From Escherichia coli (GTDB lineage: Bacteria; Pseudomonadota; Gammaproteobacteria; Enterobacterales; Enterobacteriaceae): 64,000 bases of DNA. Below the pieces are notes generated by a model that ran no database searches, was not told the DNA's origin, and saw only the letters and a program-made list of their open reading frames with translations. A program made the position numbers and the translations under genes. The stretch is from assembly GCF_003790525.1 (NCBI RefSeq), contig NZ_CP033635.1; one strand, written 5' to 3'. Below, piece by piece: positions 661-60,606 of the stretch. The stretch's first letter is position 1; each line of letters opens with the position of its first letter.

Positions 661-1533
661 TTAACGTCCCTTCTTTTTTCGCCCCGGCGAGGTAAAACGC
701 TTACCGTTGGACGCCGGGCGACCGCCTTTTTCCGCCGTTTTTTCCATCTTGACGACTGGACGTTTGATGCCTACCGTTTTCGGCTTGGCCTTCGCTTTAG
801 GTTTTGCCTCGGAAGAGGAATTTTCGATGAGCTTAAAGAGGTCGATTAACTCATCGTCGGTTAAATCGCGCCACTCACCCAGCGGAATGCCGCTTAAACT
901 GACGTTCATAATGCGCGTACGTTCCAGCTTTTTCACTTCGTAACCAAAGTGCTCGCACATGCGACGGATCTGACGGTTCAGCCCCTGCACCAGGGTAATG
1001 CGGAAGACAAACGGCGCTTCTTTTTTGACTTTGCACTTTTTCGTCACCGTCCCGAGGATCGGTACTCCCGCCCCCATACCACGAATAAATTCATCGGTAA
1101 TCGGTTTATCAACCGTCACCAGATACTCTTTCTCATGATCGTTACCCGCACGGAGGATCTTATTCACCAGATCGCCGTGATTGGTGAGGAAAATCAGCCC
1201 CTGGGAATCTTTATCCAGGCGGCCAATCGGGAACACGCGTTTGCTGTGGTTAACGAAATCGACAATGTTATCGCGCTCGCCATCTTCGGTGGTGCTGACA
1301 ATACCGACGGGCTTGTTCAGGGCGATAAGTACCAAATCTTCGGCTTCCCGAGGCTCAATCAACTGACCGTTTACTTTCACAACGTCGCCGGGTTTCACCT
1401 GATCGCCAATGGTGGCTCGCTTGCCATTAAGGAACACATTGCCTTGCTCGATATAGCGATCCGCTTCGCGGCGTGAGCAAATTCCGCTTTCGCTGATGTA
1501 TTTATTTAAACGGACTGATGAGTCGGGCAGCAT
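661..1533 (-). CDS. rluF: 23S rRNA pseudouridine synthase RluF
   Basis: 290-aa ORF, ATG confirmed (cat at 1531-1533 on + strand); S4-like N-terminus and RluA/RsuA-type pseudouridine synthase core; lysine-rich C-terminal tail. Confidence 0.9.
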
Positions 1534-1880
1534 AAATTCTCCTGTAAAACGCGGAATATACCGTACCTCTTAGCGGGGAAAAACAGGGTTATGCGGCAAC
1601 GTCGAAATTAAATGTGATCTGCCACGCCTTTTATCACAAAAGTGTCTCCGGAAGTACGATGCAAATTCGCCTGGCAAAATAAGGATAATCAACATATTAC
1701 GAATCGCTGCACACCTGTGCTGATGACTACTACGCAGAGAAACAAATGTGCAAGAGAAAGCGCTATTTCTCCCCATGCAAAGAGTGAAAAATCGCTTTGA
1801 AAGGCCATCATGATGGGGTTATATCAGATCAAGCGGTGAGAAAGCGTATTTGCACAAATGTGCAGAACCAGGAGGCGGCA

Positions 1881-2828
1881 ATGGAAAACAGTGACGATAT
1901 CCGTTTGATTGTGAAGATTGCCCAACTCTATTACGAACAGGATATGACGCAGGCGCAAATCGCGCGCGAACTGGGTATTTACCGCACCACCATCAGCCGC
2001 TTGCTTAAACGAGGCCGCGATCAGGGAATTGTCACCATCGCCATCAACTATGACTACAACGAAAATCTCTGGCTGGAGCAGCAACTGAAGCAAAAGTTTG
2101 GCCTGAAAGACGTTGTGGTGGTGTCGGGAAATGATGAGGATGAAGAGACTCAACTGGCGATGATGGGGTTACACGGCGCGCAACTGCTGGATCGCTTGCT
2201 GGAACCTGGCGATATTGTCGGTTTTTCCTGGGGCCGCGCGGTGAGCGCACTGGTTGAAAACTTGCCGCAGGCGGGGCAATCGCGGCAGTTAATTTGCGTG
2301 CCGATTATTGGCGGCCCGTCCGGTAAACTCGAAAGCCGCTATCACGTAAACACATTAACCTACAGCGCGGCAGCGAAGCTGAAAGGGGAATCGCATCTCG
2401 CGGATTTTCCGGCTCTGCTGGATAACCCATTAATTCGTAATGGGATCATGCAGTCTCAGCACTTTAAAACCATCTCTGCCTACTGGGATAATCTGGATGT
2501 CGCCCTGGTGGGAATTGGCTCACCGGCCATTCGCGACGGCGCTAACTGGCATGCGTTTTATGGTGGTGAAGAGAGTGACGACCTGAATGCCCGCCAGGTT
2601 GCTGGCGATATTTGCTCGCGCTTTTTTGATATTCACGGCGCAATGGTTGAAACGAATATGAGCGAAAAAACACTCTCTATCGAAATGAATAAATTAAAGC
2701 AGGCACGGTATTCCATTGGCATTGCCATGAGCGAAGAAAAATACAGCGGAATTGTTGGTGCACTGCGTGGAAAATATATTAATTGTCTGGTAACGAATAG
2801 CAGCACAGCTGAACTATTACTGAAATAA
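1881..2828 (+). CDS. sorC: SorC-family transcriptional regulator of the sorbose operon
   Basis: ORF track gives 1797..2828; ATG at 1881 (MENSDDIRLIVKIAQLYYEQDMTQAQIARELGIYRTTISRLL) is preceded by AGGAGG at 1869-1874. HTH plus sugar-binding domain typical of the SorC family; first gene of a sorCDFBAME-ordered cluster. Confidence 0.85.
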   Translation: MENSDDIRLIVKIAQLYYEQDMTQAQIARELGIYRTTISRLLKRGRDQGIVTIAINYDYNENLWLEQQLKQKFGLKDVVVVSGNDEDEETQLAMMGLHGAQLLDRLLEPGDIVGFSWGRAVSALVENLPQAGQSRQLICVPIIGGPSGKLESRYHVNTLTYSAAAKLKGESHLADFPALLDNPLIRNGIMQSQHFKTISAYWDNLDVALVGIGSPAIRDGANWHAFYGGEESDDLNARQVAGDICSRFFDIHGAMVETNMSEKTLSIEMNKLKQARYSIGIAMSEEKYSGIVGALRGKYINCLVTNSSTAELLLK

Positions 2829-2897
2829 AAATCTTCCCGATGTTTACCGTAATAAAAATTACGGCGGGTCCCTATTATCTAAAATCAGGAGTCTGTT

Positions 2898-3704
2898 ATG
2901 CAAACGTGGTTAAATTTGCAGGATAAAATCATTATTGTCACCGGCGGCGCATCCGGTATTGGTCTGGCGATTGTGGATGAATTATTAGCACAAGGCGCGA
3001 ATGTACAGATGGTCGATATTCACGGTGGCGATGGTCAATATGAAAACCATAAAGGTTATCAGTTCTGGCCGACCGATATTTCCAGCGCCAAAGAGGTAAA
3101 TCATACGGTAGCAGAAATTATCCAGCGTTTTGGTCGCATCGACGGTCTGGTCAATAACGCCGGGGTCAATTTCCCGCGTCTGCTGGTCGATGAGAAAGCG
3201 CCTGCCGGGCAGTATGAACTCAACGAAGCGGCATTCGAAAAAATGGTCAATATCAACCAGAAAGGCGTTTTTCTGATGTCGCAGGCGGTGGCGCGACAGA
3301 TGGTCAAACAACATGATGGCGTGATTGTGAATGTTTCCTCAGAAAGTGGGCTGGAAGGCTCAGAAGGCCAAAGCTGTTACGCCGCGACCAAAGCCGCGCT
3401 CAATAGCTTCACGCGCTCCTGGTCGAAAGAGCTGGGTAAGCACGGTATCCGTGTGGTCGGTATCGCGCCGGGGATTCTGGAAAAAACAGGACTGCGTACG
3501 CCGGAATATGAAGAAGCGCTGGCGTGGACGCGCAATATCACCGTCGAGCAGCTGCGTGAAGGCTATACCAAAAACGCCATTCCTATTGGGCGCGCCGGAA
3601 GATTAGCAGAAGTGGCTGATTTTGTTTGTTATCTGCTGTCTGAACGCGCCAGCTATATCACCGGAGTAACCACTAACATTGCGGGCGGCAAAACGCGCGG
3701 CTAA
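2898..3704 (+). CDS. sorD: Short-chain dehydrogenase/reductase, sorbitol-6-phosphate 2-dehydrogenase type
   Basis: 268 aa with the SDR glycine motif TGGASGIGLA and a YxxxK motif (YAATK); position 2 in the sor cluster. Confidence 0.8.
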   Translation: MQTWLNLQDKIIIVTGGASGIGLAIVDELLAQGANVQMVDIHGGDGQYENHKGYQFWPTDISSAKEVNHTVAEIIQRFGRIDGLVNNAGVNFPRLLVDEKAPAGQYELNEAAFEKMVNINQKGVFLMSQAVARQMVKQHDGVIVNVSSESGLEGSEGQSCYAATKAALNSFTRSWSKELGKHGIRVVGIAPGILEKTGLRTPEYEEALAWTRNITVEQLREGYTKNAIPIGRAGRLAEVADFVCYLLSERASYITGVTTNIAGGKTRG

Positions 3705-3713
3705 GGAGGCTTT

Positions 3714-4121
3714 ATGGTCAATGCCATTTTTTGCGCCCACGGCAAATTAGCCTGCGCCATGCTGGAATCGGTTCAGATGGTGTACGGCGATGCCAGGGTC
3801 GAGGCCGTTGAATTTGTGCCCGGCGAGAACGCCGGAGACATTGTGGCAAAGCTGGAGAAGTTAGTGAGCATTCACAATCATGACGAGTGGCTAATCGCCG
3901 TGGATTTACAGTGCGGCAGCCCGTGGAATGCGGCAGCGATGCTTGCGATGCGCAATCCTCGTCTGCGGGTAATCAGCGGCCTTTCTCTGCCGCTGGCGCT
4001 CGAACTGGTTGATAACCAGGACAGCATGAATATTGATGAACTGTGTGAACACCTGACGCAAATCGCAAAGCAAATCTGCGTCGTCTGGAGACAGGTGGCA
4101 ACAGCGGAGGAGGATTTCTGA
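3714..4121 (+). CDS. sorF: PTS mannose/sorbose-family EIIA component
   Basis: 135 aa with N-terminal histidine in the CAHG context typical of mannose-family EIIA; stop overlaps the sorB start (TGATG). Confidence 0.8.
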   Translation: MVNAIFCAHGKLACAMLESVQMVYGDARVEAVEFVPGENAGDIVAKLEKLVSIHNHDEWLIAVDLQCGSPWNAAAMLAMRNPRLRVISGLSLPLALELVDNQDSMNIDELCEHLTQIAKQICVVWRQVATAEEDF

Positions 4122-4615
4122 TGAACATTACGCTCGCCCGCATTGATGACCGCCTGATCCACGGCCAGGTCACTACCGTCTGGTCTAAGGTGGCTAACGC
4201 CCAACGCATTATTATCTGCAATGACGAAGTTTATAACGATGAAGTTCGCCGGACATTATTGCGTCAGGCTGCGCCACCGGGAATGAAGGTTAACGTGGTC
4301 AATATTGAAAAAGCCGTCGCGGTTTATCACAACCCGCAATATCAGGACGAAACCGTTTTTTATCTTTTCACTCGCCCACAAGATGCCTTAGCAATGGTTC
4401 GCCAGGGGGTAAAAATAGGTACCCTGAATATTGGCGGTATGGCCTGGCGTCCTGGTAAGAAACAGTTAACCAAAGCAGTTTCATTAGATGACGATGATAT
4501 TAACGCATTTCATGAGTTAAATAATCTTGGCGTCATACTGGATTTACGCGTCGTAGCGTCAGATCCCTCAATCAATATTATCGACAAAATAAACGAACAG
4601 TTAATCGCAAATTAA
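4121..4615 (+). CDS. sorB: PTS mannose/sorbose-family EIIB component
   Basis: 164 aa with the RIDDRLIHGQV motif characteristic of mannose-family EIIB. Confidence 0.85.
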   Translation: MNITLARIDDRLIHGQVTTVWSKVANAQRIIICNDEVYNDEVRRTLLRQAAPPGMKVNVVNIEKAVAVYHNPQYQDETVFYLFTRPQDALAMVRQGVKIGTLNIGGMAWRPGKKQLTKAVSLDDDDINAFHELNNLGVILDLRVVASDPSINIIDKINEQLIAN

Positions 4616-4680
4616 ATAATAGCGCCTGTGTACATATGCTTTAACAGGCAGGGATGACGACACTTAAAAGGTGACAAATC

Positions 4681-5478
4681 ATGGAAATAAGTACCCTACA
4701 AATTATTGCTATATTTCTTTTTTCCTGTATTGCCGGAATGGGCAGCGTGCTGGATGAATTTCAGACTCATCGTCCGTTAATTGCCTGTACGGTGATTGGT
4801 TTAATTCTCGGTGATTTAAAAACCGGAATTATGCTCGGTGGTACGCTGGAATTGATAGCTCTCGGCTGGATGAACGTCGGCGCGGCGCAATCTCCGGATT
4901 CTGCACTCGCCAGCATAATCTCCGCCATTCTGGTTATCGTTGGTCAGCAAAGCATCGCCACCGGAATCGCCATCGCGTTGCCTGTGGCTGCGGCAGGCCA
5001 GGTGCTGACGGTGTTTGCCCGTACCATCACAGTAGTGTTCCAGCACGCGGCGGATAAAGCAGCAGAAGAGGCGCGGTTTCGCACTCTCGATATTCTGCAT
5101 GTCTCCGCGCTTGGCGTGCAGGCGCTGCGCGTTGCTATTCCGGCACTGATTGTCTCGCTGTTCGTCAGCGCCGATATGGTGAGCAATATGCTGAGCGCCA
5201 TTCCCGAATTTGTGACCCGTGGACTGCAGATTGCTGGCGGTTTTATCGTGGTGGTCGGTTACGCCATGGTGCTTCGCATGATGGGCGTGAAATATTTGAT
5301 GCCTTTCTTTTTCCTCGGTTTCCTCGCAGGTGGCTACCTCGATCTCAGTCTGCTGGCGTTCGGTGGCGTCGGCGTGATCATGGCCCTGCTCTACATCCAG
5401 TTAAATCCACAGTGGCGTAAAGCTGAACCACATCCCCAGACCACCACTATCACCGCCCTTGACCAACTTGATGATTAA
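4681..5478 (+). CDS. sorA: PTS mannose/sorbose-family EIIC component
   Basis: 265-aa hydrophobic multi-pass membrane protein; position and size fit EIIC of the Man family. Confidence 0.8.
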   Translation: MEISTLQIIAIFLFSCIAGMGSVLDEFQTHRPLIACTVIGLILGDLKTGIMLGGTLELIALGWMNVGAAQSPDSALASIISAILVIVGQQSIATGIAIALPVAAAGQVLTVFARTITVVFQHAADKAAEEARFRTLDILHVSALGVQALRVAIPALIVSLFVSADMVSNMLSAIPEFVTRGLQIAGGFIVVVGYAMVLRMMGVKYLMPFFFLGFLAGGYLDLSLLAFGGVGVIMALLYIQLNPQWRKAEPHPQTTTITALDQLDD

Positions 5479-5488
5479 CGGAGCCATC

Positions 5489-6313
5489 ATGGAACAGAGA
5501 AAAATTACACGCAGCGATCTGGTGAGCATGTTTCTGCGCTCCAACCTGCAACAGGCATCCTTTAACTTTGAACGTATTCACGGGCTGGGTTTTTGCTACG
5601 ACATGATCCCCGCCATCAAACGACTTTACCCATTAAAAGAGGATCAGGTTGCGGCGCTCAGGCGACACCTAGTGTTCTTCAATACCACGCCAGCCGTATG
5701 TGGCCCGGTCATCGGCGTCACTGCCGCCATGGAAGAGGCGCGAGCCAACGGCGCGGAAATTGATGACGGTACCATTAACGGCATCAAAGTCGGCCTGATG
5801 GGACCGTTGGCAGGTGTTGGCGATCCACTGGTCTGGGGAACGCTGCGCCCGATTACCGCCGCGCTCGGCGCATCTCTGGCACTTTCGGGCAACATTCTCG
5901 GCCCCCTGCTGTTCTTCTTTATTTTCAATGCAGTACGTCTGGCAATGAAATGGTATGGGCTGCAACTGGGCTTTCGTAAAGGGGTGAATATCGTCAGCGA
6001 TATGGGCGGTAATTTGCTGCAAAAACTGACCGAAGGCGCGTCGATTCTCGGGCTGTTTGTAATGGGCGTACTGGTGACCAAATGGACATCGATCAACGTG
6101 CCGTTAGTGGTTTCACAAACGCCTGCCGCCGATGGTGCCACCGTCACTATGACCGTACAGAACATTCTCGACCAGCTTTGCCCTGGATTGCTGGCGCTCG
6201 GTTTGACGCTGCTGATGGTACGTCTGCTCAACAAAAAAATTAACCCGGTATGGCTGATTTTCGCCCTGTTTGGTTTAGGGATTATCGGTAATGCGCTGGG
6301 CTTCCTGTCCTGA
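5489..6313 (+). CDS. sorM: PTS mannose/sorbose-family EIID component
   Basis: ORF track starts at a TTG (5459); the ATG at 5489 (MEQRKITRSDL...) has ACGGAG 5 nt upstream. Membrane protein resembling the EIID family. Confidence 0.8.
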   Translation: MEQRKITRSDLVSMFLRSNLQQASFNFERIHGLGFCYDMIPAIKRLYPLKEDQVAALRRHLVFFNTTPAVCGPVIGVTAAMEEARANGAEIDDGTINGIKVGLMGPLAGVGDPLVWGTLRPITAALGASLALSGNILGPLLFFFIFNAVRLAMKWYGLQLGFRKGVNIVSDMGGNLLQKLTEGASILGLFVMGVLVTKWTSINVPLVVSQTPAADGATVTMTVQNILDQLCPGLLALGLTLLMVRLLNKKINPVWLIFALFGLGIIGNALGFLS

Positions 6314-6364
6314 TTCTTCGCCCCGGCACGACTGCCGGGGTCATCGCTCAACATGAGGTGGTTT

Positions 6365-7594
6365 ATGAAAACAACAGCTCTGCGTCTTTATGGCAAACGT
6401 GACCTGCGTCTGGAAACCTTTGACCTTCCTGAAATGCAGGAGGATGAAATCCTCGCGACGGTGGTCACTGACAGCCTGTGCCTCTCTTCCTGGAAAGAGG
6501 CCAATCTGGGGGAAAACCATAAAAAAGTACCCGACGATGTGGCGACCAATCCCATCATCATCGGCCACGAATTTTGCGGCGATATTCTGGCCGTGGGTAA
6601 AAAGTGGCAGCACAAATTCCAGCCGGGTCAGCGTTATGTGATTCAGGCCAACCTGCAACTCCCCGACCGCCCGGACTGCCCCGGCTACTCCTTCCCGTGG
6701 GTAGGCGGCGAAGCGACGCATGTGGTTATTCCCAACGAGGTCATGGAACAAGATTGCCTGCTGGCATACGACGGCGAAACCTATTTTGAAGGCTCGCTGG
6801 TTGAACCGCTTTCCTGCGTGATTGGCGCGTTCAACGCCAACTATCATCTTCAGGAAGGTAGTTATAACCACACGATGGGGATTCGCCCGCAAGGGCGCAC
6901 GCTGATCCTCGGCGGCACCGGACCAATGGGACTGTTGGCGATTGATTATGCGCTGCATGGACCCGTTAACCCGTCGCTGCTCGTTATTACCGATACCGAC
7001 AACGACAAATTGAGTTATGCGCGCAAGCACTATCCATCAGAACCGCAAACACTGATTCATTATCTCAATGCCACCGATGCAGCATTTGATACGTTAATGG
7101 CGCTGAGTGGCGGTCACGGCTTCGATGATATTTTCGTCTTTGTGCCTAATGAAGGACTGGTGACTCTCGCCTCTTCCTTGCTGGCGACAGATGGTTGCCT
7201 GAATTTCTTCGCCGGACCGCAGGATAAACATTTCAGCGCGCCAATTAATTTCTACGATGTGCATTATGCATTTACCCACTACGTGGGCACGTCAGGCGGC
7301 AATACCGACGACATGCGCGCGGCGGTCAAACTGATCGAAGAGAAAAAAGTGCAGGCCGCAAAAGTGGTAACACATATTCTTGGGCTGAATGCCGCGGGCG
7401 AAACCACGCTTGAATTGCCTGCCGTCGGCGGCGGGAAAAAACTGGTGTATACCGGGAAATATCTGCCGCTGACATCACTCACGCAGATTCAGGATGAAGA
7501 ACTGGCGGCGATTCTGGCGCGTCATCAGGGAGTCTGGTCCGGCGAGGCGGAGCAGTACCTGCTCGCCCATGCAGAGGCGATTTCCCATGATTAA
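6365..7594 (+). CDS. sorE: Zinc-dependent dehydrogenase, sorbose-1-phosphate reductase type
   Basis: About 409 aa; ATG at 6365 preceded by GAGG; medium-chain dehydrogenase fold (GHEFCGDI zinc-ligand region, GGTGPMG Rossmann motif); last gene of the canonical sorCDFBAME order. Confidence 0.75.
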   Translation: MKTTALRLYGKRDLRLETFDLPEMQEDEILATVVTDSLCLSSWKEANLGENHKKVPDDVATNPIIIGHEFCGDILAVGKKWQHKFQPGQRYVIQANLQLPDRPDCPGYSFPWVGGEATHVVIPNEVMEQDCLLAYDGETYFEGSLVEPLSCVIGAFNANYHLQEGSYNHTMGIRPQGRTLILGGTGPMGLLAIDYALHGPVNPSLLVITDTDNDKLSYARKHYPSEPQTLIHYLNATDAAFDTLMALSGGHGFDDIFVFVPNEGLVTLASSLLATDGCLNFFAGPQDKHFSAPINFYDVHYAFTHYVGTSGGNTDDMRAAVKLIEEKKVQAAKVVTHILGLNAAGETTLELPAVGGGKKLVYTGKYLPLTSLTQIQDEELAAILARHQGVWSGEAEQYLLAHAEAISHD

Positions 7595-8399
7595 TCGCGA
7601 TACTCAACTCTGCATGTCGCTGGCCGGCCGCCCCGGTAACTTCGGCACGCGTTTTCACAATTATCTTTATGAAAAGCTGGGGCTGAATTTCATCTATAAA
7701 GCGTTCACCACCCAGGATATTGCAGCGGCGGTGAAAGGGATTCGCGCGTTGGGTATTCGCGGTTGCGCTGTGTCGATGCCGTTTAAAGAAAGCTGCATGC
7801 CTTTTCTCGACGCGATCGATCCGTCGGCGAAGGTCATTGATTCCGTGAATACCATCGTGAATGACGACGGCAGGCTGACCGGGTTTAACACCGACTATAT
7901 CGCGGTGAAAAGCCTGATTACCCACCACCAGCTCAATACCACCACGCGAGTGATGATTCGCGGCAGTGGCGGCATGGGCAAAGCGGTGATTGCCGCCTTT
8001 CGCGACGCGGGGTTTACGGATGTTATCATTGCCGCCCGCAACCGCGAGAGCGGCCCGGCGCTGGCGAAGCAGTATGGGTTTCAGTGGCAACCGCAGCCGG
8101 AAGGCATCGCCTGCGACATTCTGGTCAACGTGACGCCCGTTGGCATGAGCGGCGGTAAAGAGAGCCATGAGCTGGCCTTCAGCGAAGCGATGGTCTCAAC
8201 GGCAAGCGTCGTTTTTGATGTCGTGGCCTTGCCGCCGGAAACGCCGCTCATTCGCCTGGCGCAACGGCTTGATAAGCAGACGATTAGCGGTGCGGAGGTG
8301 ATTGCTTTACAGGCCGTCGAGCAGTTCGCAATGTATACCGGCGTACGGCCTGATGCGCAACTGATTGCTGAGGCGGCACAATTTGCACGAGAAGGATAA
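7587..8399 (+). CDS. Shikimate/quinate dehydrogenase-family (AroE-like) oxidoreductase, translationally coupled to sorE
   Basis: ATG at 7587 overlaps the sorE stop (ATGATTAA). 270 aa with SDH-family hallmarks: the VSMPFK lysine motif, the NTDY aspartate motif and a GSGGMGKAV nucleotide-binding loop. Not part of the canonical sor operon as I remember it. Confidence 0.7.
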   Translation: MINRDTQLCMSLAGRPGNFGTRFHNYLYEKLGLNFIYKAFTTQDIAAAVKGIRALGIRGCAVSMPFKESCMPFLDAIDPSAKVIDSVNTIVNDDGRLTGFNTDYIAVKSLITHHQLNTTTRVMIRGSGGMGKAVIAAFRDAGFTDVIIAARNRESGPALAKQYGFQWQPQPEGIACDILVNVTPVGMSGGKESHELAFSEAMVSTASVVFDVVALPPETPLIRLAQRLDKQTISGAEVIALQAVEQFAMYTGVRPDAQLIAEAAQFAREG

Positions 8400-8521
8400 G
8401 AAACATCAGCGCCTTGTTTGCCACGCCAGAAGCAATGCGCAACATCGTGAGCCATGTCAGTAAGCGGTTAAAATCACAGTGGTAGCATGGCTCCCGTGAT
8501 TTCTTACTAACCGGAGAAGTA

Positions 8522-9211
8522 ATGGAACTGCTTTTATTGAGTAACTCGACGCTGCCGGGTAAAGCCTGGCTGGAACATGCGCTGCCGCTGATTGCTGAAC
8601 AGTTGCAGGGTCGCCGTTCAGCGGTATTTATTCCTTTCGCTGGCGTAACGCAGACCTGGGATGATTACACAGCGAAAACGGCTGCGGTTCTCGCTCCGCT
8701 GGGTGTTTCTGTCACCGGTATTCATAGCGTTGTCGATCCCGTTGCCGCGATTGAAAATGCTGAGATCGTGATTGTCGGCGGCGGGAATACTTTCCAGTTG
8801 CTGAAACAGTGCCGCGAGCGCGGGCTGCTGGCACCAATTACTGACGTGGTTAAACGTGGCGCGCTGTATATTGGCTGGAGCGCAGGCGCTAACCTTGCTT
8901 GCCCAACCATTCGTACCACCAACGATATGCCGATTGTCGATCCGCAAGGTTTCGATGCGCTGAATCTGTTCCCGTTGCAAATCAACCCGCACTTCACCAA
9001 CGCGCTGCCGGAAGGCCATAAAGGTGAAACGCGTGAGCAGCGTATTCGCGAACTGCTGGTCGTCGCGCCAGAACTCACAATTATTGGTCTACCGGAAGGT
9101 AACTGGATCACGGTGAGTAAAGGTCACGCTACGCTGGGTGGCCCGAACACCACTTATGTGTTTAAGGCTGGTGAAGAAGCGGTTCCGCTGGAAGCGGGTC
9201 ACCGTTTTTAA
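8522..9211 (+). CDS. pepE: Peptidase E (alpha-aspartyl dipeptidase)
   Basis: 229 aa, ATG at 8522 with a GGAGAAG ribosome-binding site; matches PepE as remembered (S51 peptidase). Confidence 0.9.
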
Positions 9212-9251
9212 ATGAATTGCCGGATGCATGATCCGGCATCTTGTTCATCGT

Positions 9252-9289
9252 GCCTGATGCGACGCTTTACGCGTCTTATCAGGCCTACA
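9252..9289. repeat. REP (repetitive extragenic palindromic) element, preceded by a GCCGGAT/ATCCGGC hairpin at 9219-9237
   Basis: GCCTGATGCGACGCTTTACGCGTCTTATCAGGCCTACA fits the REP consensus; lies between the convergent pepE and yjbB. Confidence 0.7.
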
Positions 9290-9300
9290 GGGTCACGGTA

Positions 9301-10932
9301 TTAATACTCGTCCCGTCCTTCGTCTTCATCCGGCTGTTCCAGCACACTGTAAGCCACCGAACAAAACAGCGAGTTCAGACGCTGCATATCTCCCAGTAAG
9401 CCTAAATGTAGCGAACTGGTTTCAATGCTTTGCACGTTTTGCTGATGCAGGCGATCGACGTGAGCATGGGAATAACGGCGATTAAGAATGCGAAAGCGAT
9501 GCTTGCTGCGGCGCAAACGACGGGCGCTGGTAACATCGCCAGAGAAGAAAACCGACATTGCCAGTTTTAAATTACTGAGCAATTGCTCATAGAGCGCATC
9601 CAGTTCCTTCAAGCCATCAAGCGAAAATGCCCGCCGTGCTGCCAGCGATTTATCGGCAATTTCGCTCCCCATGCGCTCGACGATATCGGAGGCCTGTTCA
9701 AGGTTGAGCGACATTTCGATGATCTCCGCCCAGCGGCGCGACTCTTCCTCCGCCAGCTCTTCTTTTGGCATCCGCGCCAGATACAGCTTAATGGCGGTAT
9801 AGAGAACGTTGATATCATCTGCCAGCTTACGCAGCTCTTTCTCCTGCCGTGGCTCGCCGTGCATCACTTTATTCAGCCCTTCCATCATCTGTTCCATCGC
9901 GTCACCAATGCGCAGGGTTTCGCGCGCGGCGTTCGCCAGAGCAAGCGTGGGCGTATCCAGCGCGCTGACATCCAGATGTTTGGGTCGTAGCTGGGTATCC
10001 AGTTCCGGTTCATCGCGAATAATCGTTTTGCAAAACCGTGCCATCGGGTCAACAAATGGCAGCATGACCAGGCAGCGTACAAGGTTGTAGAAGACGTGGA
10101 AATAGATCACCAGTTCCGCTTTTGGCAGTGGCAACTTCCCCATTGTCTCTGCCAGCAAATGGACAAACGGCAGGATAATCAGGCTACCCACCAGCTTAAA
10201 CAGCAGGCTACCCAGCGCGACACGGCGGGCTGCGGCATTGGCGGCACTGTTGTTGAGCATCGCCAGCAGACCGGAACCGAGGTTAGCACCAATCACCAGA
10301 CAGAGCGCCACGGGGAAGGAGATAATGCCTGCGGCGGTCAGAGTCGCGGTCAGCAGTACAGCAGCAAGGCTGGAGTAGCTGATAATGGCGAACATCGCGC
10401 CAATCAGCGCATCCAGCAGAATATCGCCGGTCAGCGAGGCAAAGATCACCTGAACGCCGTTTGCCTGGGTGATCGGCGTTACGGCCTGCACAATCAACTC
10501 CAGCGCCAGCAAAATCAGCCCAAGACCAATACCGACGCGGCCCAGTTGCCCGGCGCGTGACTGTTTGCGTCCGAGGAAAAAAATCACGCCGATAAAAATA
10601 AGTAACGGTGACAGCCAGGATAAGTCGAAGGTGAGAATACGCGCCATTAGCGCCGTCCCGACATCTGCACCCAGCACAATCACCAGAGCCGGTGCGAGGG
10701 CTACCAGATCCTGAGCGACAAACGAGGTCACCAGCATGGTGGTGGCATTACTGCTCTGCACCAGTGCGGTAACGCCTATCCCCGCGCAAAAGGCGAGCGG
10801 CTTCTTTTCGACGCTTCGGCTAAGAACAGTACGCAGACGCGCGCCGAAGACGCGCATTACGCCTGTTCGAACAATATGAGTCCCCCAGACCAGCAGGGCG
10901 ACGGCAGAAAGCAGGTGAAGCAGCGTTAACAC
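9301..10932 (-). CDS. yjbB: Na/Pi cotransporter-family inner membrane protein YjbB
   Basis: 543 aa, GTG start (cac at 10930-10932 on + strand) preceded by AAGGAG; membrane domain plus PhoU-like C-terminal domain. Confidence 0.85.
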   Translation of the reverse strand: MLTLLHLLSAVALLVWGTHIVRTGVMRVFGARLRTVLSRSVEKKPLAFCAGIGVTALVQSSNATTMLVTSFVAQDLVALAPALVIVLGADVGTALMARILTFDLSWLSPLLIFIGVIFFLGRKQSRAGQLGRVGIGLGLILLALELIVQAVTPITQANGVQVIFASLTGDILLDALIGAMFAIISYSSLAAVLLTATLTAAGIISFPVALCLVIGANLGSGLLAMLNNSAANAAARRVALGSLLFKLVGSLIILPFVHLLAETMGKLPLPKAELVIYFHVFYNLVRCLVMLPFVDPMARFCKTIIRDEPELDTQLRPKHLDVSALDTPTLALANAARETLRIGDAMEQMMEGLNKVMHGEPRQEKELRKLADDINVLYTAIKLYLARMPKEELAEEESRRWAEIIEMSLNLEQASDIVERMGSEIADKSLAARRAFSLDGLKELDALYEQLLSNLKLAMSVFFSGDVTSARRLRRSKHRFRILNRRYSHAHVDRLHQQNVQSIETSSLHLGLLGDMQRLNSLFCSVAYSVLEQPDEDEGRDEY

Positions 10933-17628: not shown

Positions 17629-17761
17629 GCCGGATGCGGCGTAAACGCCTTATCCAGCCTACGTTCGGCAACGGTTGTAGGCATGATAAGACGCGCAAGC
17701 GTCGCATCAGGCATCGTGCACCGATTGCCGGATGCGGCGTAAATGCCTTATCCGGCCTACA
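17629..17761. repeat. BIME: three REP elements in alternating orientation between aceA and aceK
   Basis: GCCGGATGCGGCGTAAACGCCTTATCCAGCCTAC (17629-17662), an inverted copy at about 17677-17715, and GCCGGATGCGGCGTAAATGCCTTATCCGGCCTACA (17727-17761); this is the well-known aceA-aceK intercistronic REP cluster. Confidence 0.85.
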
Positions 17762-22355: not shown

Positions 22356-23605
<1,250 letters not shown>

Positions 23606-23860
23606 TGGTGAAGCATGCGCTCTCAATGGCCCCGGAACTGACAACCAATGTTAATGAGCAAAATGAGCAGGCGGTTGGGTTCTATAAGAAGGTGGGTTTT
23701 AAGGTTACGGGACGCTCTGAGGTGGACGATTTGGGGAAACCGTATCCATTGCTGAATCTGGCATATGTGGGGGAATAAGCTGCCCCCTATCGTGCTATCG
23801 TGCCTGCGTAAGCTGGAGCAGACGCGCCAGCGTCGCATCCGGCATTTTTTCTGCGCCAAT

Positions 23861-23890
23861 GCAAAAAGGCCATCCTGACGGATGGCCTTT
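23861..23890 (-). terminator. rrnE operon intrinsic terminator
   Basis: On the minus strand, an AAGGCCAUC...GAUGGCCUU hairpin followed by U5, immediately 3' of the 5S rRNA. Confidence 0.75.
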
Positions 23891-23901
23891 CGCTTAATTT
23901 G

Positions 23902-24021
23902 ATGCCTGGCAGTTCCCTACTCTCGCATGGGGAGACCCCACACTACCATCGGCGCTACGGCGTTTCACTTCTGAGTTCGGCATGGGGTCAGGTGGGACCA
24001 CCGCGCTAAGGCCGCCAGGCA
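23902..24021 (-). rRNA. rrfE: 5S ribosomal RNA
   Basis: 120 nt; the reverse complement begins TGCCTGGCGGC and ends ...CTGCCAGGCAT, matching E. coli 5S rRNA. Confidence 0.95.
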
Positions 24022-24112
24022 AATTCTGTTTCATCAGACCGCTTCTGCGTTCTGATTTAATCTGTATCAGGCTGAAAATCTTCTCTCATCCGCCAAAACA
24101 TCTTCGGCGTTG

Positions 24113-27017
<2,905 letters not shown>

Positions 27018-27210
27018 TCACAACCCGAAGATGTTTCTTTCGATTCGTCATCGTGTTGCGAAAATTTGAGAGACTCACGAACAACTTTCGTTGTTCAGTG
27101 TTTCAATTTTCAGCTTGATCCAGATTTTTAAAGAGCAAATATCTCAAACGTCACCCGAAGATGAGTTTTGAGATATTAAGGCAGGTGACTTTCACTCACA
27201 AACCAGCAAG

Positions 27211-27286
27211 TGGCGTCCCCTAGGGGATTCGAACCCCTGTTACCGCCGTGAAAGGGCGGTGTCCTGGGCCTCTAGACGAAGGGGAC
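27211..27286 (-). tRNA. gltV: tRNA-Glu in the 16S-23S spacer
   Basis: Reverse complement GTCCCCTTCGTCTAGAGGCCCAGGACACCGCCCTTTCACGGCGGTAACAGGGGTTCGAATCCCCTAGGGGACGCCA (76 nt). Confidence 0.95.
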
Positions 27287-27371
27287 GTATCAGTCTGCTT
27301 CGCAAGACGCCTTGCTTTTCACTTTCTATCAGACAATCTGTGTGAGCACTTCAAAGAACGCTTCTTTAAGG

Positions 27372-28913
<1,542 letters not shown>

Positions 28914-40754: not shown

Positions 40755-40925
40755 AATTTCTTGTCGGAGTGCCTTAACTGGCTGAGACCGTTTATTCGGG
40801 ATCCGCGGAACCTGATCAGGCTAATACCTGCGAAGGGAACAAGAGTTAATCTGCTATCGCATCGCCTTTGCGGCGATCGTCTCTTGCTTCATCCGTCGTC
40901 TGACAAGCCACGTCCTTAACTTTTT
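40755..40925 (+). ncRNA. TPP (thiamine pyrophosphate) riboswitch / thi-box leader of thiC
   Basis: Conserved thi-box elements GGAGUGCC, CUGAGA and ACCUGAUCAGGCUAAUACCUGCGAAGGGAAC at 40765-40839, with an expression platform extending to the thiC ribosome-binding site. Confidence 0.85.
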
Positions 40926-60164: not shown

Positions 60165-60240
60165 TGGTGCTGATAGGCAGATTCGAACTGCCGACCTCAC
60201 CCTTACCAAGGGTGCGCTCTACCAACTGAGCTATATCAGC
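60165..60240 (-). tRNA. thrT: tRNA-Thr (GGU)
   Basis: Reverse complement GCTGATATAGCTCAGTTGGTAGAGCGCACCCTTGGTAAGGGTGAGGTCGGCAGTTCGAATCTGCCTATCAGCACCA (76 nt). Confidence 0.95.
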
Positions 60241-60246
60241 ACATCT

Positions 60247-60321
<75 letters not shown>

Positions 60322-60437
60322 ATCCTGGAACTCGGCTACCTGATTTTCATTCTGCACTGAATATCGAGAGAAGCTCTCTTTATTCGAGCCGGTAAGCGAA
60401 CTTATCGTCTCGGGCTACGCCATCGCGTGGCCGAAAT

Positions 60438-60522
<85 letters not shown>

Positions 60523-60530
60523 GGACTTGA

Positions 60531-60606
<76 letters not shown>

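Follow-up and report, generated by a model that had tools for sequence, protein, structure and literature searches.

The DNA analyzed in this work is a stretch of 64,000 nucleotides (nt) from Escherichia coli, referred to below as the window, and the region of interest lies at positions 1534-8521, between the core genes rluF and pepE. We are highly confident that this region holds the chromosomal L-sorbose utilization (sor) operon of E. coli with its full set of eight genes and that the operon is an old resident of the locus. The window comes from E. coli SMS-3-5, and the region 1534-8521 is 100% identical to NC_010498.1. The operon itself is well known, SMS-3-5 having been reported as sor-positive in 2010; the less ordinary point is that SMS-3-5 keeps the eighth gene, sdhL, which is deleted in most E. 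coli.

Gene content and layout

The list of open reading frames (ORFs) of the window and the RefSeq annotation of NC_010498.1 agree on all gene calls from rluF to yjbB, and both bear out the gene content and order (sorCDFBAME plus one extra gene) that had been proposed in an earlier reading made from the sequence alone, here called the sequence-only reading. The rluF-pepE interval contains eight genes, all on the plus strand, and all eight ORFs are full length as judged against their orthologues. The genes and their neighbors are the following (PTS, phosphotransferase system):

661-1533, minus strand: rluF, left flanking core gene (NF007784 RluF equivalog, 607 bits with a cut-off of 318; RefSeq)
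1881-2828, plus strand: sorC, SorC-family sugar-binding transcriptional regulator, 315 amino acids (full-length match to PDB 2W48; RefSeq start)
2898-3704, plus strand: sorD, SDR-type D-glucitol(sorbitol)-6-phosphate dehydrogenase, 268 amino acids (NF004817)
3714-4121, plus strand: sorF, sorbose PTS EIIA, 135 amino acids (TIGR00824)
4121-4615, plus strand: sorB, sorbose PTS EIIB, 164 amino acids (PDB 1NRZ, TIGR00854)
4681-5478, plus strand: sorA, EIIC membrane subunit, 265 amino acids (TIGR00822 EII-Sor)
5489-6313, plus strand: sorM, EIID membrane subunit, 274 amino acids (TIGR00828)
6365-7594, plus strand: sorE, L-sorbose-1-phosphate reductase, a zinc-type medium-chain dehydrogenase, 409 amino acids (RefSeq name)
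7587-8399, plus strand: sdhL, the eighth or "extra" gene, shikimate-dehydrogenase-like oxidoreductase, 270 amino acids (PDB 1NPY, NF009202)
8522-9211, plus strand: pepE, right flanking core gene (NF003642 PepE, 357 bits; annotation)
9301-10932, minus strand: yjbB, beyond pepE and followed by metH (annotation)

From sorC to sdhL the spacers are, in order, 69, 9, -1, 65, 10, 51 and -8 nt. The tight or overlapping junctions described in the sequence-only reading can be read directly: the sorF stop overlaps the sorB start in the TGATG at 4119-4123, and sorE and sdhL overlap by 8 nt (ATGATTAA at 7587-7594), so that the sdhL ATG lies inside the end of sorE. A longer, TTG-initiated sorC ORF (1797-2828) was ruled out by the alignment to Klebsiella pneumoniae SorC and by the RefSeq start at 1881.

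Assignment of the cluster to L-sorbose

The assignment draws its strength from two proteins with crystallized counterparts in K. pneumoniae. SorC, which the family models class as a SorC/DeoR-family regulator, matches K. pneumoniae SorC (PDB 2W48) over its full length (E=2e-183 across 315 residues), and SorB matches K. pneumoniae EIIB-Sor (PDB 1NRZ) with E=5.6e-91. Because both are such close matches to full-length crystallized sorbose proteins, we conclude that the rluF-pepE cluster is a sorbose system and not another mannose-family PTS. EIIA, EIIB, EIIC and EIID of the mannose family are all present and each exceeds the curated cut-off of its model, with SorF at 145.7 bits for TIGR00824 EIIA-man (cut-off 98), SorB at 223 bits for TIGR00854 (cut-off 164), SorA at 422 bits for TIGR00822 (cut-off 340) and SorM at 473 bits for TIGR00828 EIID (cut-off 293). 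The phosphorylatable residues of these systems are a histidine in the N-terminal xHG motif of EIIA and the histidine of the RLIHGQV site of EIIB. The SorF translation begins MVNAIFCAHGK, with the histidine in its N-terminal CAHGK, and in SorB the segment ARIDDRLIHGQV, aligned to 1NRZ, covers the RLIHGQV histidine site.

Of the two catabolic enzymes, SorD scores 501 bits with NF004817, the sorbitol-6-phosphate dehydrogenase subunit model (cut-off 304), and its translation contains the motifs TGGASGIG and YAATK. SorE has the Pfam domains ADH_N and ADH_zinc_N and a GHEFCG motif, and is 86-92% identical to the products annotated as L-sorbose 1-phosphate reductase in the Citrobacter, Klebsiella and Raoultella loci; its homologues in Citrobacter, Klebsiella and Enterobacter carry that name.

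The operon sorCDFBAME of K. pneumoniae reportedly encodes the L-sorbose PTS and catabolic enzymes (work of Sprenger and Lengeler and of Wehmeier et al.). Its seven genes and their order are shared by SMS-3-5. The comparison with Klebsiella products that the sequence-only reading had called for upholds its sorbose identification, since SorC and SorB are close full-length matches to the K. pneumoniae proteins and the remaining products share 71-96% identity with their counterparts in K. variicola, which also has the neighborhood rluF ... yjbB-metH-iclR. The difference from the classical K. pneumoniae operon is that here an eighth gene, sdhL, follows sorE with the 8-nt overlap. K. variicola has sdhL too, and the classical seven-gene description, ending at sorE, may have stopped short of it. 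An exact-sequence look-up of K. pneumoniae SorC (PDB 2W48) found no record; the K. pneumoniae complex is represented here by K. variicola, through its SorE cluster.

The steps of the pathway and the control by SorC are established for the sor systems of Klebsiella and E. coli and are assigned to SMS-3-5 by orthology. The mannose-family PTS would import L-sorbose and phosphorylate it to L-sorbose-1-phosphate, the phosphate passing from phosphoenolpyruvate through EI and HPr to SorF (EIIA), then to SorB (EIIB) and finally to the sugar in the SorA/SorM (EIIC/EIID) complex. SorE would reduce L-sorbose-1-phosphate to D-glucitol-6-phosphate, and SorD would oxidize the latter to D-fructose-6-phosphate, which would enter glycolysis. 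SorC, encoded by the first gene, would control the operon in response to L-sorbose.

Experiments on related operons agree with this scheme. The seven-gene operon of CFT073 (c4981-c4987) gives DH5alpha growth on L-sorbose, and the same study places SMS-3-5 among the operon-positive strains, its operon grouping in the tree with those of uropathogenic and avian pathogenic E. coli (PMC2831201, 2010). Strains of sequence types ST131 and ST648 grow on L-sorbose and induce the operon, growth of an ST648 strain being in minimal medium; a sorE mutant is unable to use L-sorbose, the operon confers a competitive advantage on this sugar, and ST648 is the one sequence type reported there to have sdhL beside the operon (PMC12817954). 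A sorbose-positive phenotype of SMS-3-5 is predicted and fits this literature on closely related operons. Two points weigh on the other side: SorE reached the cut-off of no NCBIfam model, so that its name comes from RefSeq annotation and orthology, and the growth data come from related E. coli, the phenotype of SMS-3-5 being a prediction.

Conservation of the locus across genera

A scan of one genome per species with an SdhL alignment gave 80 loci, in which all Sor proteins and flanking genes were then located. The arrangement rluF-sorCDFBAME-sdhL-(variable insert)-pepE-yjbB was found in two species of Pseudocitrobacter, in E. albertii and in six species of Citrobacter. The same rluF-sor-sdhL-pepE-yjbB order occurs in Klebsiella spallanzanii, K. 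grimontii, K. michiganensis, K. indica, three Raoultella species and an Enterobacter sp., and K. variicola has the arrangement rluF-sorCDFBAME-sdhL-yjbB, without pepE. For Citrobacter, Klebsiella and Raoultella the sor genes have diverged from those of SMS-3-5 at synonymous sites (dS) about as far as rluF, pepE and yjbB have (about 0.9-3), and the dS of sdhL is likewise close to that of these flanking genes.

Features of a mobile genomic island were also looked for. The ORF list of the window contains no integrase or transposase, no tRNA was found near the rluF-pepE region, and a search for attachment-site or border repeats at its edges gave only short, chance-level repeats. The GC content of the sor region (0.42-0.59) is like that of its surroundings. 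The locus does not show the combination of mobility genes, tRNA or att repeats, deviant composition and patchy unrelated locations that marks such an island. Because the same gene order is found at the same locus across genera, with flank-like dS and no signs of mobility, it is most likely that the sor cluster has long resided at the rluF-pepE-yjbB-metH locus in Enterobacteriaceae and that K-12-type strains have lost all of it.

Among these loci, Citrobacter and K. spallanzanii (L008, L010, L012, L016) have inserts of 3.5-8 kb between sdhL and pepE; the sdhL-pepE junction in other genera is a hotspot for variable content.

The deletion scar in seven-gene strains

The gene sdhL is present in only 176 of 5426 complete E. 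coli genomes, among them IAI39 and SMS-3-5. Pairwise alignment with SMS-3-5 showed that O157 and EC67 retain sdhL nt 1-58, in which codon 7 has changed from CAA to TAA, joined directly to the final ~55 nt of the gene. The part that they lack is the following:

7645-8345, plus strand: sdhL segment deleted in the common seven-gene form, 701 bp, between CGGC microhomologies

A 141-nt probe spanning the scar matched contiguously in 2646 of the 5426 genomes. The sampled seven-gene strains carry the scar, whereas SMS-3-5 has the intact gene, and the reverse-strand polymerase chain reaction (cloning) primer used for CFT073 in PMC2831201 falls on the scar. The common seven-gene form is a deletion derivative, and most E. 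coli with sor have lost only sdhL through one 701-bp deletion. The presence of sdhL has been called an ST648-specific insertion (PMC12817954); since the seven-gene form carries a deletion scar, it is instead the ancestral state.

In the sampled seven-gene strains a hairpin/REP-like insert of ~155 bp, absent from SMS-3-5, lies between the scar and pepE. It consists of a GC hairpin, GCGCCTTAAGGGGCGC, followed by a REP-like sequence, GCCGGATGCGG...AGGCCTGGTAAGCG (L002:8112-8347 and L084).

Identity of SdhL

SdhL matches Haemophilus influenzae HI0607 (PDB 1NPY, "shikimate 5-dehydrogenase-like") over residues 1-268 with E=2.9e-112 and 66-68% identity, and scores 467 bits with NF009202 (cut-off 306). 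With the AroE model TIGR00507 it scores 165.5, below the cut-off of 200.2, and it is 24% identical to E. coli AroE, the sequence of which was verified against 1NYT for the alignment. The extra gene is identified by these comparisons as sdhL, of the SdhL class of the shikimate dehydrogenase family. Residues K67 and D103, which align with AroE K65 and D102, are invariant in 14 SdhL sequences, and N88 and Q242 are also conserved; the protein is predicted to be an NAD(P)-dependent oxidoreductase with the shikimate dehydrogenase fold that keeps the catalytic Lys/Asp pair.

In AroE, residues S14, S16 and Y215 clamp the carboxylate of shikimate. SdhL has neither the AroE equivalog score nor this clamp: the Ser-x-Ser loop of S14/S16 is shorter by two residues (N-F-G-T-R), and the position of Y215 holds A214, an alanine present in all 14 SdhL sequences aligned. 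Since the clamp residues are not conserved, the alignment suggests a substrate that lacks a carboxylate of the shikimate type. HI0607 is reported to oxidize shikimate weakly (Singh et al. 2005), which fits the loss of the clamp. HI0607, the type member of the class, has the same length as SdhL of SMS-3-5, matches it end to end and conserves the catalytic K67/D103 pair, and differs in context: in Pasteurellaceae sdhL follows secB-gpsA-cysE, while in Enterobacteriaceae it closes the sor operon.

The fold family of SdhL also includes a 5-keto-D-fructose reductase (PDB 7COK, E=3e-16). A specific kinship with this enzyme was rejected, as the match is weaker than those to ordinary AroE proteins (E about 1e-32). 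The Tatumella 5-keto-D-fructose reductase yields D-fructose and not L-sorbose, and a Clostridium homologue is inactive on 5-ketofructose (PMC7954740). The enzyme shows that the fold can act on a neutral ketohexose one redox step from L-sorbose/D-fructose, and it is a precedent only.

Relationship of sdhL to the sor operon

By tblastn coordinates, sorE runs into the start of sdhL across the Enterobacteriaceae loci, and the gene calls of K. variicola again give an overlap of 8 nt. As the sdhL start falls within the final codons of sorE, the two genes most likely share a transcript and are translationally coupled. The report that sdhL is expressed only in ST648, where it is differentially expressed with L-sorbose (PMC12817954), supports this proposal. 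The complete sorCDFBAME and sdhL cluster also occurs in unrelated flanks, in Serratia sp. H1w and in a Yersiniaceae-like contig; in the latter, identities are 49-85% for the Sor proteins and 64% for SdhL, with a gap of 136 nt before sdhL. The dN/dS of sdhL (0.05-0.16) indicates purifying selection similar to that on the sor genes. We consider the operon membership and ancestry of sdhL to be well supported. Of the "one extra gene" of the sequence-only reading, the presence at 7587-8399 stands, and its nature can be refined: the gene is sdhL, which has long been the eighth member of the cluster and is no stray passenger.

Several observations pull against a close tie between sdhL and sorbose. 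The ST648 study gives sdhL expression and not operon structure, and places sdhL "upstream" of the operon (PMC12817954). In Kluyvera (L014, L015, L022, L025; about 9057-10810) there is only a diverged sorC (70%) followed after 20 nt by sdhL with its own ribosome-binding site, sorDFBAME being absent. In Pluralibacter (L024, L029; 9774-10768), which lacks both the sor genes and pepE there, sdhL is the only gene from rluF to yjbB and has a 227-bp spacer and a ribosome-binding site of its own in front of it. A Brenneria sp. (L074; 7551-10801) has a sorC-like gene (56%), a truncated sorD and a C-terminal fragment of sorE just upstream of an intact sdhL; its sor operon has decayed, with sdhL kept. 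The Pasteurellaceae gene follows a rhodanese-like gene, secB, gpsA and cysE; outside Enterobacterales the neighborhoods of sdhL are varied and none gave an informative hint to function. Conversely, sor genes are present but sdhL is missing in E. fergusonii and a Yersinia species, and the seven-gene operon suffices for growth on L-sorbose (PMC2831201), so sdhL is dispensable for this growth. Since sdhL and sor are separable and seven-gene operons work without sdhL, its role may be unrelated to sorbose. We conclude that sdhL is an accessory, co-expressed member of the operon and not a step of the pathway. In E. fergusonii (L087/L088; 10374-10967) an opposite-strand DUF2058 gene lies downstream of sorE, in place of sdhL and pepE.

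The gene linkage, the lost carboxylate clamp and the fold precedent of 5-ketofructose reductase together allow a speculation on substrate. The orphan class SdhL, as the ancestral and translationally coupled eighth sor gene product, might act on a ketohexose or polyol of the sorbose type, widening or safeguarding the pathway, and would not serve aromatic biosynthesis; candidate substrates would be L-sorbose-1-phosphate, D-glucitol-6-phosphate, and 5-keto-D-fructose or its phosphate entering via the Sor PTS. We put this forward tentatively and regard it as doubtful.

The main alternative for this gene is that sdhL encodes a second shikimate dehydrogenase, an AroE isozyme that stands beside sor by chance, has its own expression and has no functional tie to the operon. 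RefSeq and NCBIfam name the protein shikimate 5-dehydrogenase, the gene occurs without sor genes in Pasteurellaceae, Pseudomonas, Lautropia, Neisseria and Pluralibacter, and a weak shikimate oxidation is, as mentioned, reported for HI0607. The mSystems study also groups sdhL with shikimate-pathway genes (PMC12817954). These points are outweighed by the score below the AroE cut-off (165 vs 200), the low identity to E. coli AroE and the unconserved clamp residues, and by the sorE overlap conserved across genera, the travel of sdhL with sor into unrelated contexts and its response to sorbose in ST648. In addition, 94% of sor-positive E. coli and all K-12-type strains do without sdhL, which is therefore not needed for aromatic biosynthesis. 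We judge an isozyme unlikely.

Distribution in E. coli and comparison with K-12

The description of the region as strain-variable content in the sequence-only reading agrees with the genome counts: 2865 of the 5426 complete E. coli genomes (about 53%) hold at least 80% of it. A survey of tens of thousands of genomes found that >86% of the members of each phylogroup carry the operon, the exceptions being A (9.6%) and B1 (12.1%) (PMC12817954, December 2025). Other seven-gene operons of E. coli are at the same locus, and the sampled ones are ~96-98% identical in nucleotide sequence (CFT073 is not among the rows shown).

In K-12 MG1655, rluF and pepE are neighbors, as stated in the sequence-only reading, with 211 bp between them in the annotation. 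By BLAST, nt 1-35 of the K-12 spacer match window positions 1534-1568 and nt 116-211 match 8426-8521, which leaves the following:

1569-8425, no strand assigned: segment without K-12 counterpart, 6857 bp, replaced in K-12 by 80 unrelated nt

The single insertion of ~6.9 kb expected from an alignment to MG1655 thus corresponds to 6857 bp missing from K-12, and the sor genes are not present in K-12 at this site. The middle 80 nt of the K-12 spacer (nt 36-115, L003:2421-2500) gave no match in the sor region or in sor-positive E. coli; their first ~24 nt are similar to the spacer next to rluF in Kluyvera and Citrobacter. The spacer flanks shared by K-12 and SMS-3-5 are only ~94% identical, which is lower than the adjacent genes suggest.

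The comparison could also be explained if the 6.9-kb block were a horizontally acquired island in the SMS-3-5 lineage and the empty site of K-12 were ancestral. Presence or absence of the block is indeed polymorphic within E. coli, and the unmatched middle and the low identity of the shared flanks in the K-12 spacer would agree with this explanation. A further observation in its favor, and one that counts against long residence, comes from Pseudocitrobacter, in which the dS of sor and sdhL (0.36-0.75) is below that of rluF and yjbB (0.86-1.22); homologous recombination in the conserved flanks may have carried the cluster from one genus to another. Acquisition is nevertheless opposed by the gene order kept at this locus in E. 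albertii, Pseudocitrobacter, Citrobacter, Klebsiella, Raoultella and an Enterobacter sp., by the parts of the cluster that survive there in Kluyvera and Pluralibacter, by the dS comparable to that of flanking core genes for Citrobacter, Klebsiella and Raoultella, and by the ordinary GC content together with the lack of an integrase, transposase, tRNA or flanking direct or inverted repeat. We find acquisition in the SMS-3-5 lineage very unlikely, and prefer an old locus that K-12 has lost. The words "island" and "insertion" used in the sequence-only reading hold as a description of the alignment to K-12, whereas as history they probably do not, because the event was most likely a loss in K-12 at a locus conserved across at least six other genera.

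One strain, JNEC-KY178 (L085), is the only E. coli genome with a diverged sdhL (91% nucleotide identity). Two hypothetical genes separate its yjbB from metH, as in E. fergusonii, and espL4 follows iclR; the segment may be introgressed.

Comparison with other mannose-family systems

The mannose PTS of E. coli, ManXYZ, belongs to the same PTS family and shares the EIIA/B/C/D architecture with EIID. It differs in that ManX fuses EIIA and EIIB, which are separate proteins in the sor system, and in that the latter is sorbose-specific and set among the SorD/SorE enzymes and SorC. SorB was also compared with the EIIB proteins of other systems, and EIIB-Sor is far ahead of IIB-Man (2e-49, 170 bits), the fructose permease IIB-Lev (1e-40) and IIB-Aga (4e-20), so that the best matches to another mannose-family PTS that might have overturned the assignment were not found. 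It is extremely improbable, and largely refuted, that the cluster is such another PTS (for mannose, fructoselysine/glucoselysine, N-acetylgalactosamine/galactosamine or fructose), for while the four subunits also match generic mannose/fructose/sorbose models and the PRK15088 (ManX) and PRK11103 (ManZ) models give strong partial scores, SorB prefers EIIB-Sor, the regulator matches K. pneumoniae SorC over its full length, the aga and galactosamine models score far under their cut-offs, the partner enzymes are of the SorD and SorE types and not deglycases, isomerases or aldolases, and near-identical operons are sorbose-specific by experiment (PMC2831201, PMC12817954).

Candidate control region upstream of sorC

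A scan of positions 1400-8700 for promoters and terminators found fewer promoter-like sites than in shuffled sequences, with none in the rluF-sorC spacer or after sdhL, and a simple sigma-70 scan found nothing in 1709-1864. The promoter scan being uninformative, we used conservation across genera instead. Four blocks are invariant or nearly so in the regions upstream of sorC in 10 genera, and the sequence between them is variable:

1709-1864, plus strand: putative sor control region with candidate SorC operators and promoter, from conserved blocks in the cross-genus alignment
1709-1720, plus strand: palindrome GCACACCTGTGC / GCACAnnTGTGC, conserved block upstream of sorC
1743-1753, plus strand: half-site CAAATGTGCAA, conserved block upstream of sorC
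1817-1831, plus strand: GGTTATATCAGATCA, conserved block upstream of sorC
1850-1864, plus strand: perfect palindrome TTGCACAAATGTGCA, 17 nt before the sorC ATG

The conserved blocks, including the palindrome, are kept in Kluyvera, where only sdhL follows sorC. They are plausible candidates for SorC operator and promoter elements, and SorC probably acts via the TGCACA..TGTGCA palindromes just upstream of its own gene.

Other features of the window

In SMS-3-5 and O157, yjbD and rluF abut with a gap of 0 nt (window 660/661), and K-12 has 132 extra bp there (L003:1381-1512). Matches at the Rfam gathering score elsewhere in the window are ordinary content for this chromosomal region:

23415-28913, minus strand: complete rrn operon (16S, tRNA, 23S, 5S), with an isrC-like match just downstream
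40755-40855, plus strand: thiamine pyrophosphate (TPP) riboswitch
60168-60606, minus strand: four-tRNA cluster
17680-17757, minus strand: naRNA4/REP-type element

Significance

The sor operon is a textbook system and matters mainly as a strain marker, being enriched in extraintestinal pathogenic lineages; it explains the classical sorbose-fermentation polymorphism of E. coli. What the comparison adds is polarity, with the locus as the ancestral state and K-12 and the strains of phylogroups A and B1 as the losers. The single identical scar carried by 2646 of the 5426 complete genomes is a simple lineage marker, and the palindromes upstream of sorC offer candidates for the SorC operator. The linkage of sdhL to sorE across Enterobacterales provides a handle on the physiological role of an enzyme class that has a solved structure.

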